From the NCBI GenBank assembly GCA_963514005.1, contig OY740790.1:48918001-48982000 (forward strand): a stretch of DNA of 64,000 nt, written 5' to 3'. The position numbers were made by a program, and so were the translations under genes. Below are positions 3,898 to 9,259 of the stretch, piece by piece. The stretch is from Raja brachyura. Taxonomy: Eukaryota. Every line of letters starts with the position of its first letter. The stretch's first letter is position 1. Under the pieces are notes generated by a model, which ran no database searches, was not told the origin of the DNA, and worked only from the letters and a program-made list of their open reading frames with translations.

Positions 3898-4006
3898 AAT
3901 AGTAAGATTAAACGAGAACTTACCAGTTTGAAGTTTGATCTTTATTTTATGAGGAGTTGCGATGAGGGATTTCGTGAAGAACCCGCCAGCACGCATGCGC
4001 GACATA
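3898..4006 (-). repeat. DIRS 3' (right) terminus: right ITR plus 3' extension
   Basis: 3898-3976 is the exact reverse complement of 4125-4203. 3971-4006 is the exact reverse complement of 9194-9229. Confidence 0.95.
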
Positions 4007-4124
4007 CTTCAAAGCCGCGGTGTGGAATCACAGAAAAACCAAGCCAAGAAATGACTTGTTATAGTAAGATTAAAGAGACTCTAGTTACCAGTTGACTTTA
4101 TGATCGAGGGTTGGGAGCGGAGGG

Positions 4125-4237
4125 CACGAAATCCCTCATCGCAACTCCTCATAAAATAAAGATCAAACTTCAAACTGGTAAGTTCTCGTTTAATCTTACT
4201 ATTTCATTTCGGAGTCACGTGAGTGACTTCGTGAAGA
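4125..4237 (-). repeat. DIRS internal complementary region (ICR)
   Basis: 4125-4203 is complementary to the right end (3898-3976) and 4198-4237 to the left end (9220-9259). The two parts overlap at ACTATT (4198-4203), the predicted circle junction. Confidence 0.95.
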
Positions 4238-4381
4238 CTTCAAAGCTTCTGTGATTTCACGCCCTGGACAACGTCCATGCTATCACACACGCTACTGAAA
4301 AGGTGGACAGCAGTAATCAATTTCCGTCACTGTTTCTCTGAAAAATAATAATATTTATTAATAACAACAAGAAAGGACCCC

Positions 4382-5371
4382 TCACTGAGGGGGAACTGTA
4401 TGTTCTCGGCCTGCATCCAGCACGGCTCCTGCGAACATTCCAGGTACGGTGACGGGTTTATTGTAAAACCGTTGAAAAGTGGCTTCACTGGCCCATCCCG
4501 CTGTGGCAAGTATCTGGTCCATGGGCACCTCCATGGCCTTTGCCGCCGATGTTGATGCTGCCCTGGTGGAATGGGATTTAAAAACATCAGTGTCAATACC
4601 TGCTTTGTTCAAGACGATCCTGAGCCATCGGGATATCGTCTGCACCGTCACTCTATGGTGAGGTTTTTTATGACTGATGAACAGGTATTGCTCCATTCCC
4701 CTTATTTTCCTCGTCACTTTGATATAGTGGCGGATATGGGTGGCTATGCATAGCCTAGCATCAGCGGGGTATGCTGGAAACTCCAGCTGCAGCCCTGTAA
4801 ATCCAGGTCTATGCTGCTTGAGCAATTCATCAATGAAGAAAGTGACCCGTTCAGGGGTAGAGATCATTCTGTCGATCTTGGCCTTGTGAAGCGTTTGCAC
4901 CCTTTGTGCTGAAGTAAGTGCCATCAACATCACCACCTTCAGGGTGAGTTTGTCCAATTCGAGCCCCGTCATGGGTGACCATGTTCTCAGCAGGGTCAGT
5001 ACTTTGCCAATATCCCATGTGACGTTGTAACGGGGCCTCGGCGGGTTGGAATTAAATATCCCCCGCATAAGTTTGGAGACCAATTTATTGGATCCTACCT
5101 CAATATTGAGGTAGGACGAGAGCGCACTCCTGGCGCTATTGATGGCACTATAGCTGAGATGTTGATCATGGTGTAGCCCCGCAAGAAATTCCAGCACATC
5201 TGTGATGGAGACGGAGTCATATGCAACGTCCATGCGGCCACAATAGGATTCCCATTTCCTGATGTACGATAAGTACTGCCGTCTTGAGGACTCCCTGCAT
5301 GATGCTCCCATGGTATCCATTGTCCTTGAAGATAGACCATACTGAAGTAGTGGCCTGTTCAGATCCTGCAA
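4382..5371 (-). CDS. DIRS ORF3 tyrosine recombinase (phage integrase family, N-terminal SAM-like core-binding region)
   Basis: 329 codons. Catalytic motifs SAQR, HSTR, AGW and RFYNK give an intact R-H-R-(W)-Y set. The ORF opens at TTG, and the first in-frame ATG lies after the conserved GLS segment. Confidence 0.95.
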   Translation of the reverse strand: MQDLNRPLLQYGLSSRTMDTMGASCRESSRRQYLSYIRKWESYCGRMDVAYDSVSITDVLEFLAGLHHDQHLSYSAINSARSALSSYLNIEVGSNKLVSKLMRGIFNSNPPRPRYNVTWDIGKVLTLLRTWSPMTGLELDKLTLKVVMLMALTSAQRVQTLHKAKIDRMISTPERVTFFIDELLKQHRPGFTGLQLEFPAYPADARLCIATHIRHYIKVTRKIRGMEQYLFISHKKPHHRVTVQTISRWLRIVLNKAGIDTDVFKSHSTRAASTSAAKAMEVPMDQILATAGWASEATFQRFYNKPVTVPGMFAGAVLDAGREHTVPPQ

Positions 5372-7368
5372 GCCAATAGATTCAAATGACTATGGCAGGG
5401 GTGTGGTTCCCCTGTGGCAGGGTTCGTCACCAATTGTGGGCAACCCTCCAAGAGGACCCATGGTTGACTTATCATTCCAAGGACCACCGGATACCATGAT
5501 TGCGTAGGCCAGTCGGGTATAATGAGGATGCCCTTGGCAGCATCGAGCTGGATTTTCCGCAATACCCGACTGATGAGGCAGAATGGAGGAAAGGCATAGA
5601 AGAACCATTTCCCCCAGTCTAGCGAGAATGCGTCCATCGCCATTGCCCCAGGATCTGGCTCCCATGATACGTATGTTGGTACCTGATGGTTCAACCGTGA
5701 CGCAAAAAGGTCAATATCCGGTTTACCAAATTTGGCTGTAATTTTGGTGAATATTTGGGGGTTCAACATCCACTCGATGTTGTCATTGAACTTCCGTGAC
5801 CTGGTGTCCGCCACTGTATTGAGCTCACCTGGCAAGTAGGTAGCTGAGATCCAAATATTCCGTTGAATACACCAGAGCCAAATTGTGTTTGCCAATTCAT
5901 TGCATGAAATTGACCTGGTACCGCCCATATGATTCAGATAAGCCACCGCAGTGGTATTGTCTATTTGGAGACGGACATGAGTGTTAGTCATGTTTGAACA
6001 ATAGGCTCTTAGTCCGTGGAATGCTCCTAGCATCTCCAAATAGTTTATCCCTTGTGCTAACAACAAAGTAGCTTCACGTGAATCCCATCTACCTCCACAA
6101 CTGTTATTGTTGTCCGTAGCTCCCCAGCCATGGGAGCTTGCATCTGTTTGCAAGTATACCATTGGACGAGGCACAATGATGGGTTTAAAAGAGTTATGGA
6201 TATTGCCAATCCACCATAGTAACTCAAGTTTTGCCTTAACCGGCAATTGCATGGGTCTATCATAATGTCCAGCATTTAGTTTTAATGCTGTTATTTTTGA
6301 CCTTTGTAAATTCTGATAGTGTAAAGGTCCATATTGAGCAGCTGGAAATACTGCTACAATTTTGCCAATTACCCTGGCAGTTAATCTGATAGACGGTATA
6401 CTGGCGCAGACCAGGTTCTTGCATGCTTGAAACACATCACCAATTTTGTTAGTTGGGATGGTGGTGATCATGCGATTGGAGTCTATTGTGAACCCCAAGT
6501 AGTCCATGATCTGTGCGGGGAGGAACTTTGATTTGTCTGGATGGATTATAAACCCCATTTGTTGAAAAATTTCCACTGTGGCTGAAACCGCCAACTCTGC
6601 GGATTCCAGAGTGTGCCCAATTATCAGAATGTCATCCAAATAGGCCATGACCGTATGATTTTGTCTCCGCAGTGTAGATAACACTGGCTTGAGTAGTTTG
6701 GTGAACAGTCTGGGGGCTGTAGTAAGCCCATTGGGCAATGCTTTGTATTGCCAAAGCTGATCCATCCAGGTAAACTTCAAGAACTTCCTATGATGTTTCC
6801 GAATGGATACTGAATAGTATGCATCTTTTAAATCAATGCATGCCATGAAGCAGCCCTCCGAAATCAAAGATTTGGCTGTTTCAAATGTGTCCATTTTGAA
6901 ATGGGTGTATTTTACAAAGGTATTCAAGTGAGTTAAATCTATAATGACCCGGCATCCACCGTCTTTTTTAGTTTTAGTAAATATATTAGACACAAATTCA
7001 ACTGGTTCATGTGTGGTTCGTTCTATCACACCTTTGTCTTGTAAACTCAAGATTTCAGCATAGCCTTCTGCCAATTCTTTTTTGGAAAGTGCAAATTTGC
7101 GATTCGGCATATGCTGGGGTGGAGGCAATTGGCCATGAATAAACTCAATTTCATAACCCTGAATACTTTGCAAGATAAACTCATCTGAAGTGATGGTTTC
7201 CCAAGCCTCCTTAAATCCCCGTAATCTGCCCCCAATTCGTGAGGTTAGACATGCAAGTGCATGGAACCCAGACCCCCTTACCTTCATGGTTATCGGCGGT
7301 CCCTGGGATTTTTGGTGGGACGTGGAGGCGCTGGGTTTCGTGGTTGGTGCGGAATCCGCATCTTCCAT
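5359..7368 (-). CDS. pol: DIRS ORF2: reverse transcriptase, RNase H and DNA N6-adenine methyltransferase-like domain
   Basis: 669 aa. RT motifs CRVIIDL, IDLKDAY, LPNGL, YLDD, YLG. RNase H motifs TDAS, INYLE, IDNTTA, NTVADTRSR. MT-like motifs DIDLFAS and YAFPPF. Confidence 0.96.
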   Translation of the reverse strand: MEDADSAPTTKPSASTSHQKSQGPPITMKVRGSGFHALACLTSRIGGRLRGFKEAWETITSDEFILQSIQGYEIEFIHGQLPPPQHMPNRKFALSKKELAEGYAEILSLQDKGVIERTTHEPVEFVSNIFTKTKKDGGCRVIIDLTHLNTFVKYTHFKMDTFETAKSLISEGCFMACIDLKDAYYSVSIRKHHRKFLKFTWMDQLWQYKALPNGLTTAPRLFTKLLKPVLSTLRRQNHTVMAYLDDILIIGHTLESAELAVSATVEIFQQMGFIIHPDKSKFLPAQIMDYLGFTIDSNRMITTIPTNKIGDVFQACKNLVCASIPSIRLTARVIGKIVAVFPAAQYGPLHYQNLQRSKITALKLNAGHYDRPMQLPVKAKLELLWWIGNIHNSFKPIIVPRPMVYLQTDASSHGWGATDNNNSCGGRWDSREATLLLAQGINYLEMLGAFHGLRAYCSNMTNTHVRLQIDNTTAVAYLNHMGGTRSISCNELANTIWLWCIQRNIWISATYLPGELNTVADTRSRKFNDNIEWMLNPQIFTKITAKFGKPDIDLFASRLNHQVPTYVSWEPDPGAMAMDAFSLDWGKWFFYAFPPFCLISRVLRKIQLDAAKGILIIPDWPTQSWYPVVLGMISQPWVLLEGCPQLVTNPATGEPHPCHSHLNLLACRI

Positions 7369-9056
7369 GCTGGCCGCTGAGGGCCTAGTCCTAAAAAAGG
7401 CCTGGGCTGATGAGGCTGTTGATATTGAGGAGGTGCCGGAACGTAGGTCCTTGTTGGCCTATCGGTCTGACCTCGTGGCCTGAAGTAAGGTGTCTTCTTG
7501 GCCGAAGGTCTGGCCACAAAATGTGGTCTCATCAGACCTATGGTTTTCGCATGGTCATCGAGCTCTTTGACCTGCTTTGGGAGGTCTTCCCCGAACAGCT
7601 GTCTAGGTGGGGGGGTAGGAGGTGCTCTGCATAGTCCCGCAAATTTGGGATTTAAGGAAGGTTTGATAATGCTCTTCCGGAAAGCGTTGATCTCGTACTG
7701 CGTATTGCAGAGTAGAGCTAGAGCATCCTCCTGTTCGGTGCTTAGATCAACCCCATCTACCGACTTTGCAAAAGCGGTGATCCCAGACGTAAGCAGTTTT
7801 AAAATCCTCTGCAGTTTCACTTCCTGCGCTCTGATGCCCGGGCTGATATTACCCCAGATTGGCATGTTCACAATCGGCACGTGGAGTGAATTGCAGTTCC
7901 CTGGAGCCTTGTGTCTCTCCATGGCCTTCGCAAGGACCTCCTCCTGCAATTGATGGTTAGTAAGATAATCTATGGTTGCGGCCAGTTTGATGTTGAGGGG
8001 TAGTCCTGACGATACGGGTAACCCGAATTTGGCTGCCACATCCAGCAGATCTTCCTGAGGGACCTCAGGTGCTGCTGGGGCATGTACCAGGATATCCTCC
8101 TCATCTGGTCTTATGTTGTCCATAGATGGGGACGGGGATATATCCATGAGTCCCCTGGAGCTGTGTGTGTCCTGTTTCTGATTGAGTAGAACTTGCTCCA
8201 ATATCCTCTCCATACGATCCAAGCGCCCTTCATCGGGCGGGTGTGGGAGGTAAGAGGCCTCGTGCCCGAAGGAACTCCTGAGGCTTCGATCATCAGTCCG
8301 TACCTCGTCGAGGTAATATCGGTACTGTGATGATGTGTCGCTACCAGCCGCCTCGGCGAAGCTGAGCGATTCCCGCGCGGACCTGCTCGAGCGCCTCCTC
8401 TTCGCTGAGCTGGACCCGGCTGCCTCAAAGGGCATGGGTGGGGAGAGGTCGGCACCTGACGCCGCAGCGTGGTGACCCGACGTCCGCACGGGCTTGCCGA
8501 CTGTCCTAAATCTGGACCCAGACGGCGTACGGTCCCGACCTGCCCCCAGCGGGGGAAGCGGTGACCTAGGCGAGGCTCCACCCTTGTGACTCCTCCTGGT
8601 CCCCCTGGGTGGTGAGTCGACACTGGCCCTCCTTGGTCTGCCAGTGGACTCGGGCCTGCCTGATTCACCAGACCACTTCCTAGTGGCTCCTGGTGAGACC
8701 TCAACCCGCGAAGGGCTAGGTAGTGGAATTGTATCCCTGCCTCCTTCAAGAGGGCTCAGGGAGAAGGGCCGTGCATCAGCACGCGAATCCCTCTTGCTCG
8801 TCTCTGCGAACGACCCAGTGGGTGAGAGAGAGATGGAGTCAGGATGCACCTGCTCCGGCGCTGTACCGACTGATTGTTCTGCAGGTACCCCGCTAGGGCA
8901 TAGCTGCGTCGGTAAACCGGGTCCTGTGAATACAGGGCTCCCCGGCTTGCGCGCCTTTTTCCCGGCCCGTCCTCCTGCCGTGGAGGGGGGCTCCGGGTTG
9001 GGTTGCCGACAACTCCTTGCAGAAGTTTTACGGCCTTTACTTTTCCTACTGTCCAT
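7290..9056 (-). CDS. gag: DIRS ORF1 Gag-like protein (588 aa from the ATG at 9056)
   Basis: First ORF of the element. Low-complexity S/P/R N-terminal half. C-terminal region PGNC..L.VP.VN..IW...LFGEDL..VK is typical of DIRS ORF1. The ORF track's TTG start at 9104 falls within a predicted leader intron; ATG 9056 has a GAC-ATG-G context. Confidence 0.85.
   Translation of the reverse strand: MDSRKSKGRKTSARSCRQPNPEPPSTAGGRAGKKARKPGSPVFTGPGLPTQLCPSGVPAEQSVGTAPEQVHPDSISLSPTGSFAETSKRDSRADARPFSLSPLEGGRDTIPLPSPSRVEVSPGATRKWSGESGRPESTGRPRRASVDSPPRGTRRSHKGGASPRSPLPPLGAGRDRTPSGSRFRTVGKPVRTSGHHAAASGADLSPPMPFEAAGSSSAKRRRSSRSARESLSFAEAAGSDTSSQYRYYLDEVRTDDRSLRSSFGHEASYLPHPPDEGRLDRMERILEQVLLNQKQDTHSSRGLMDISPSPSMDNIRPDEEDILVHAPAAPEVPQEDLLDVAAKFGLPVSSGLPLNIKLAATIDYLTNHQLQEEVLAKAMERHKAPGNCNSLHVPIVNMPIWGNISPGIRAQEVKLQRILKLLTSGITAFAKSVDGVDLSTEQEDALALLCNTQYEINAFRKSIIKPSLNPKFAGLCRAPPTPPPRQLFGEDLPKQVKELDDHAKTIGLMRPHFVARPSAKKTPYFRPRGQTDRPTRTYVPAPPQYQQPHQPRPFLGLGPQRPAWKMRIPHQPRNPAPPRPTKNPRDRR
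7392..7398 (-). promoter_or_regulatory. Candidate -1 ribosomal frameshift heptamer T_TTT_TTA (also TTTTTTAG acceptor-like)
   Basis: In gag phase (CCT TTT TTA GGA). ORF2 is in the -1 frame and open from here. A GGCC-ctcagc-GGCC hairpin lies 6 nt downstream. Confidence 0.6.
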
Positions 9057-9193
9057 GTCTCTGTGGAAGAAAACACAATTATTCACACAGAACAACCAAC
9101 TCAAGGTTGTTAGTACTTACCTGAGTGGCCCTTATGAAGGGCTGGTGATGAGCCGCGCTCCTCTCCAGCCGTCGACTGCAATGCGAGCGACGA

Positions 9194-9259
9194 TATGTCG
9201 CGCATGCGTGCTGGCGGGTTCTTCACGAAGTCACTCACGTGACTCCGAAATGAAATAGT
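9194..9259 (-). repeat. DIRS 5' (left) terminus / left ITR
   Basis: 9194-9229 is inverted relative to 3971-4006. 9220-9259 is inverted relative to the ICR segment 4198-4237. Confidence 0.95.

Follow-up and report, generated by a model that had tools for sequence, protein, structure and literature searches.

The 64,000-nucleotide window of the Raja brachyura genome analyzed here (contig OY740790.1, positions 48,918,001 to 48,982,000) carries an intact DIRS1-type retrotransposon of ~5.4 kb on its minus strand, at about 9259-3898, with a gag-like open reading frame (ORF), an overlapping pol frame, and a tyrosine recombinase ORF (Table 1). Hallmarks of DIRS1-like elements are present, namely reverse transcriptase (RT) and methyltransferase within pol, a separate tyrosine recombinase ORF, inverted terminal repeats, as well as an internal complementary region, and the repeats were recovered as three inverted pairs (3898-3976/4125-4203, 3963-4006/9194-9237, and 4198-4237/9220-9259). 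The RT domain is matched by PF00078 in Pfam (E 5.5e-22) and the Dam-like methyltransferase by PF05869 with an E value of 7e-4, which lies below the Pfam cut-off. No RNase H was matched by Pfam in the window pol; PF17917 is present in some homologues. The ORF1 product has no Pfam match, and its gag label rests on position. The element is young because all 40 scored genome copies (from 3,593 candidates in the 2.7-Gb genome) are identical over the 7150-7650 region. That region contains the overlap of gag and pol and, within it, the heptamer U_UUU_UUA, which we consider very probably to be a programmed -1 frameshift site through which the RT is made as a Gag fusion.

Table 1. Features of the DIRS1-type element and its predicted expression signals (a slash marks a putative splice junction)
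Feature	Positions	Strand	Remarks
DIRS1-type retrotransposon, intact	3898..9259 (approximate ends)	minus	three ORFs, inverted repeats, internal complementary region
Right inverted terminal repeat and internal complementary region	3898..4237	.	from inverted-pair analysis
Tyrosine recombinase ORF	4382..5389	minus	PF00589 (E 4.7e-8), PF13495
Pol frame: RT, presumed RNase H, Dam-like methyltransferase	5359..7458	minus	699 codons
Acceptor-like TTGGCTTGCAG/GAT	5363..5376	minus	recombinase-frame phase 0, past the last in-frame stop; exon would start at 5365
Donor-like AAG/GTAAGG, 8 nt past gag stop	7276..7284	minus	pol-frame phase 0; intron would start at 7281
Linker in -1 frame, heptamer to donor-like site	7282..7392	minus	37 codons
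ORF1 (gag-like)	7290..9056	minus	588 aa; stop TAA 7292-7290
First pol-frame ATG past heptamer	7366..7368	minus	overlaps conserved gag Trp codon; ATG not conserved
GGCC/GGCC hairpin, 4 bp	7372..7385	minus	6 nt 3' of heptamer; possible weak stimulator
Slippery heptamer U_UUU_UUA, predicted -1 frameshift site	7392..7398	minus	X_XXY_YYZ phase of gag
Leader donor-like CAG/GTAAGT and acceptor-like CCACAG/	9061..9120	minus	60 nt apart, directly before gag ATG

The first-pass annotation had placed T TTT TTA in slip phase relative to gag, and the minus strand indeed reads AGG CCT TTT TTA GGA CTA, which gag translates as R-P-F-L-G-L. Its account of the second frame also holds, in that pol is -1 to gag and stays open through the site from a TAG stop at 7461-7459. 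From the heptamer the -1 frame is open for 677 codons, RT included, and these together with 555 zero-frame residues give exactly the 1,232 residues estimated earlier for a Gag-Pol product. A minority of ribosomes would slip one base back at the heptamer and make a 1,232-residue Gag-RT beside the 588-residue Gag, presumably because tRNA-Phe and tRNA-Leu slip in tandem on UUU UUA, as they do in human immunodeficiency virus type 1 (HIV-1), with the slipped product continuing as ...P-F-L-R-T-R-P.... The description of the site as HIV-type is apt for its seven bases and misplaced for the host element, which is no retrovirus.

Five further families (B-F), with a pol 62-76% identical to that of the window, were drawn from the same genome by homologous-protein searches. 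The string T TTT TTA GG is kept in all six own-genome families. The codon in front of it varies among CCT, TCT, and GCT, so the T that opens the heptamer is retained while the residue shifts between Pro, Ser, and Ala, which is the synonymous constraint that a slip site was expected to leave. Of the 99 own-genome loci in which the junction is present, 98 have the full heptamer and one, L075, falls a base short (in L072 the region is missing); these loci are best matches by selection, and identity within a family is hence little informative. Among the variants listed for the window none falls at 7390-7402, an observation of little weight. In family C, a stop in the -1 frame lies one codon before the heptamer. 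Slip site and splice acceptor are not told apart by the own-genome families, because both predict a U-run followed by AG. Wider searches added little: querying the same genome with a distant pol gave nothing beyond a family near D, a search with the Gag C-terminus found only two proteins, and searches of metagenome contigs and viral contigs yielded one locus without the junction and none, respectively.

More distant relatives came from a profile search of prokaryote genome bins, where the contigs are filed in three bacterial metagenome-assembled genomes (MAGs) and are probably host DNA of animals. Among 31 distinct distant elements, 12 have pol in a -1 overlap with gag, one has the two fused (L086), 11 make up a clade whose pol is in the +1 frame and whose gag ends in TAG, three are broken or truncated (L089, L092/L161, and L157), and four have other layouts (L118, L153, L156, and L158). 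The pol of the 12 elements with a -1 overlap shows 33-45% identity, and every one of them (12/12) carries an in-phase heptamer within the overlap: U_UUU_UUG in L082, L083, L088, L154, and L155; A_AAA_AAC in L084, L087, L114, and L160; U_UUU_UUA in L090; U_UUA_AAC in L085; and G_GGU_UUU in L159. An in-phase heptamer occurs in 17/17 elements with a -1 overlap, in five different versions. The background is low: outside the overlaps, 6,490 gag codons hold 19 in-phase heptamers, and inside them 1,686 wrong-phase positions hold one. The 11 elements with pol in +1, which served as a control, lack such an arrangement. Chance alone would be expected to place a heptamer in 1.6 of 13 elements when the own families are counted once. 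The heptamer types are spread across three well-supported pol clades in a quick tree, which implies that the sequence changed several times while its slipperiness was kept. A stop in the -1 frame stands 0-2 codons before the heptamer in 5/17 elements (C, L082, L085, L087, and L088), which limits entry into pol to the heptamer or a place after it. Three of the replacement heptamers are named among the most shifty for mammalian ribosomes in the sections of a survey drawn on here (PMC5009743). The proposal of programmed -1 frameshifting is supported by both lines, the retained T TTT TTA and its replacement in phase by other heptamers in distant elements; judged by these sequence comparisons, it is slipperiness in the phase of gag that is conserved, whereas acceptor, start codon, and peptide are not.

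Several observations weigh against this assignment. The counts for the -1 overlap are not independent, since the elements are kin and 11 of the 12 distant ones come from one bin. The computed joint probability of 10^-12 overstates the case for that reason, and if only the five distinct heptamers are taken to be independent, the figure becomes about 0.12^5 = 3e-5. A G in the last place, as in the U_UUU_UUG of 5/12 distant elements, is less favorable for slippage. L086 (817-4080) has gag and pol fused into one 1,087-codon frame, in which neither a heptamer nor a phase-0 donor was seen, and in L084 and L114 there are ATGs in the pol frame upstream of the heptamer. Finally, the RNA 3' of the heptamer in the window shows no excess folding relative to shuffles (z -0.14 to -1.5), and no significant downstream structure was found in the six own-genome families (z -1.0 to +1.0).

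The folding result bears on the two hairpins that the first-pass annotation had put downstream of the site. Both are present as sequence (GGCC-CTCAGC-GGCC at 7385-7372 and TGCGG-ATT-CCGCA at 7360-7348), and the region folds no better than shuffles. Folding thus gives no support to the GGCC hairpin as a strong stimulator, and the TGCGG/CCGCA hairpin falls in a variable part of the alignment. Across the six families, 22/24 cells of the 4-bp stem are paired with one compensatory pair; 44/500 shuffles did equally well, and the stem bases double as conserved Gly and Arg-Pro codons. A stimulatory role for this hairpin is unproven. Good downstream folding was seen in four distant elements only (L087, L160, L114, and L085; z -2.4 to -3.4). 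These tests covered local structure. In alphaviruses, U_UUU_UUA functions with very diverse 3' signals, according to the sections consulted of PMC2569925.

One competing explanation, already offered as an alternative in the first-pass annotation, takes the U-run and AG as a splice acceptor that joins a leader exon to 7390, with pol starting at the ATG 22 nt past the AG. The bases CCTTTTTTAG/G do match an acceptor and are kept in 6/6 own-genome families, about half of the elements have an NAG codon 3 nt past the heptamer, and the leader has a donor-like site, the nearest acceptor to which lies only 60 nt off (53 in family B). The start codon, however, is missing from 4/6 own-genome families: families A and C have ATG at that position, but B and E have GTG, and D and F have TTG. 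An ATG arises there only when the codon ahead of the conserved gag Trp ends in A. No pol-frame ATG lies between the heptamer and the first conserved pol motif in 14/17 elements. The AG is kept at the site in only 1/12 distant elements, A_AAA_AAC and U_UUA_AAC are no pyrimidine tracts, and splicing does not explain a codon phase so strict that a single wrong-phase heptamer was met. With the AG missing from nearly all distant elements and the ATG from most elements, the acceptor alternative fails, and we regard it as very unlikely. An upstream ATG in the left repeat was also tried as a source of an exon and rejected, as its frame stops early in family B.

Two further readings would make the heptamer incidental, and each seems slightly less probable still. 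Pol could be reached by re-initiation just past the gag stop, where families A and C, together with a single copy of D, have TAA-CC-ATG (7292-7285), near-cognate ACG or TTG stands in B, E, and D, and the context is good. That arrangement is absent from the 12 distant elements, the bases conserved there also form the exon side of the donor-like site, and re-initiation leaves both the in-phase heptamers and the open -1 frame over the gag end unexplained. Alternatively, the motif could merely reflect a conserved F-L-G peptide at the Gag end, given that all six own-genome families share F-L-G-x-G-x-x-(R/K)-P-x-W-K. The codons, however, are always TTT TTA with a preceding T despite synonymous options, and in the distant elements the residues at the site are K-N, L-N, or G-F instead, which largely refutes the peptide reading.

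With frameshifting as the preferred explanation for pol, the recombinase frame raises the question of how a third gene is reached, and a splice just past gag offers a candidate answer. Donor-like sites (score of at least 5 of 7, within 45 nt past the gag stop) occur in phase 0 of the pol frame in 17/18 elements, in phase 1 in 4, and in phase 2 in 0, against a background of 19/358 control windows. On the acceptor side, all 13 distant elements (13/13) have a pyrimidine-rich YAG/ within the methyltransferase region, where it occupies a single homologous place and is in phase 0 of the recombinase frame. Upstream of it their recombinase frame holds 121 stops in 1,170 codons, and downstream it is open for 317-400 codons in 12/13 (L084 is broken); in L082 and L090 the last stop in this frame is the TAG of the acceptor itself. 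There is no fixed ATG in the distant recombinase frame, the first Met falling anywhere from codon 23 to 175. L086, with its fused gag and pol, retains the acceptor-like site. In the own-genome families the recombinase frame has stops past the place homologous to the distant acceptor; a TTGCAG/ candidate at 5365 is present in 5/5 of the families checked, and in families D and F the first recombinase-frame Met comes only at codon 105. If RNA were spliced from 7281 to 5365 and read with the same slip, the phases would match and an open Gag-linker-recombinase frame would yield a 919-residue Gag-recombinase (sum of lengths). No slippery heptamer was seen at the pol/recombinase junction. No run recorded as RNA was found to hold the element, and among the joints listed for contigs of runs of unknown or guessed type none lies at 9120, 7390, 7281, or 5365, which counts neither for nor against splicing.

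Other features count against the splice. The pyrimidine tract of the 5365 acceptor is weak (8-10 of 15), and the site lies over a conserved pol motif; its conservation may reflect that of the protein. A stronger acceptor 204 nt upstream runs into stops, a usable ATG is found in families A, C, and E 16-18 codons into the frame of the recombinase, and L086 keeps the acceptor although it has no phase-0 donor. On balance we lean toward the view that one slip site loads both enzymes onto Gag by way of a spliced RNA, with clearly less assurance than we attach to the slip itself. In the window, the recombinase frame is also open for 106 codons upstream of the recombinase ORF (5710-5390), with one TAG between them. 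This stretch is a possible remnant of the longer pol/recombinase overlap of distant elements.

The sister DIRS clade that ends gag in TAG (L091 and L143-L152, from the bin designated G001) may use a different signal. The TAG is found in 11/11 elements and is followed by an in-frame ORF of 988-1,009 codons with the recombinase at its end and its first Met anywhere from codon 28 to 507. Pfam missed this recombinase in three of the ORFs, and a profile built from related recombinases found it in 11/11. Amber read-through of the fixed UAG is a candidate route to the recombinase in this clade, in which pol lies in the +1 frame without a known entry signal. Taken together, these layouts raise the prospect that DIRS1-type elements make all of their enzymes as Gag fusions by recoding, by a slip and post-gag splicing here and by UAG read-through in the sister clade. 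In that scheme unspliced RNA would give Gag-RT and spliced RNA Gag-recombinase; we judge its chances to be evenly balanced. A single element with yet another layout, L156 (1250-1270), has a zinc-knuckle gag, pol in +1, and CGC TTT TTT CGT in the overlap. This motif resembles the UUU_CGU motif for +1 shifting in influenza PA-X as given in the cited part of PMC3498833.

Some observations concern the wider setting. The 60-nt spacing of the leader donor and acceptor in the window, like that in family B, is short for a vertebrate intron, and their use is only putative. In family B, the bases flanking the leader donor recur around the post-gag donor. A few genome copies, among them G000 C23:7535012, have far longer pol-containing frames (1,226-1,365 codons), perhaps from a gag/pol fusion through an indel. 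The bin G001, titled a Sedimenticola MAG and the source of L083-L088, L090, L091, L114, and L143-L160, holds 125 matches to retrotransposon RT profiles on contigs of a few kb; these are probably host repeats binned as a bacterial genome and hence contamination of the reference collection. Elsewhere in the window, a fragment at 224-529 appears to resemble the 3' end of ORF2 of a CR1-type long interspersed nuclear element (LINE), and the LINE fragments near the DIRS1-type element suggest a cartilaginous fish as host.

The layout of the window element agrees with that of DIRS1-like elements such as Dictyostelium DIRS-1, which have gag, RT/methyltransferase, and recombinase ORFs, inverted terminal repeats, an internal complementary region, and a length of ~5.4 kb (PMC3266345, PMC7192593, PMC5633606, PMC9210276). 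In the excerpts of these four papers used here, ORF overlaps are described and no translation mechanism is given for ORFs 2 and 3; the open literature, as sampled, leaves the translation of DIRS genes 2 and 3 without an explanation, for all the abundance and activity of these elements in many animals. No slippery site between gag and pol of DIRS1 was found in the portion of the literature covered, and either the -1 overlap or the motif may have been noted before in the Goodwin and Poulter papers or in Repbase annotations. The closest precedent within the DIRS order is the frameshift into the Ngaro recombinase ORF proposed by Poulter and Butler in 2015, as quoted in the relevant part of PMC13003380. 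That proposal shares programmed -1 frameshifting with ours and differs in that it concerns a pol/recombinase junction in another superfamily and names no site, whereas the window site is at gag/pol. The frameshift mechanism itself is known; what is likely new is that it occurs systematically in DIRS1 elements, probably coupled to a splice by which the slipped frame is led into the recombinase. The slip site would also correct the annotation, since pol would begin as a Gag fusion and not at its first ATG. If the splice is real, frameshifting and splicing would be combined and two enzymes loaded from one switch, and if the all-fusion scheme is true it would supply the missing expression scheme of DIRS elements, with RT and recombinase packaged in Gag particles.

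Outside DIRS, the passages drawn on from PMC5009743 report pol in the -1 frame in 28/51 surveyed animal long terminal repeat (LTR) retrotransposons and do not mention DIRS. As predicted for the window, those LTR retrotransposons make scarce Gag-Pol beside abundant Gag by means of a tandem-slip heptamer (PMC5009743). Their integrase, however, lies inside Pol, whereas the window recombinase is a third ORF that would be reached by the same slip on spliced RNA. The alphavirus 6K/TF site is likewise a U_UUU_UUA, was found by conservation, and works at ~10-18% with 3' stimulators that vary widely by species, as stated in the same sections of PMC2569925, but it belongs to the structural polyprotein of an RNA virus and yields a short trans-frame protein. 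HIV-1 gag-pol matches at the site itself, with the same heptamer and phase, GG next, pol -1 to gag, and the F-L-R junction that we predict for the window (PMC3561942, in the part cited). HIV-1 has a stable stem-loop stimulator where the window has only a 4-bp hairpin without statistical weight, and the window element, a retrotransposon of the tyrosine-recombinase kind, lacks protease, DDE integrase, and env. The conserved slip site would extend retrovirus-style Gag-Pol stoichiometry to retroelements that have no integrase.

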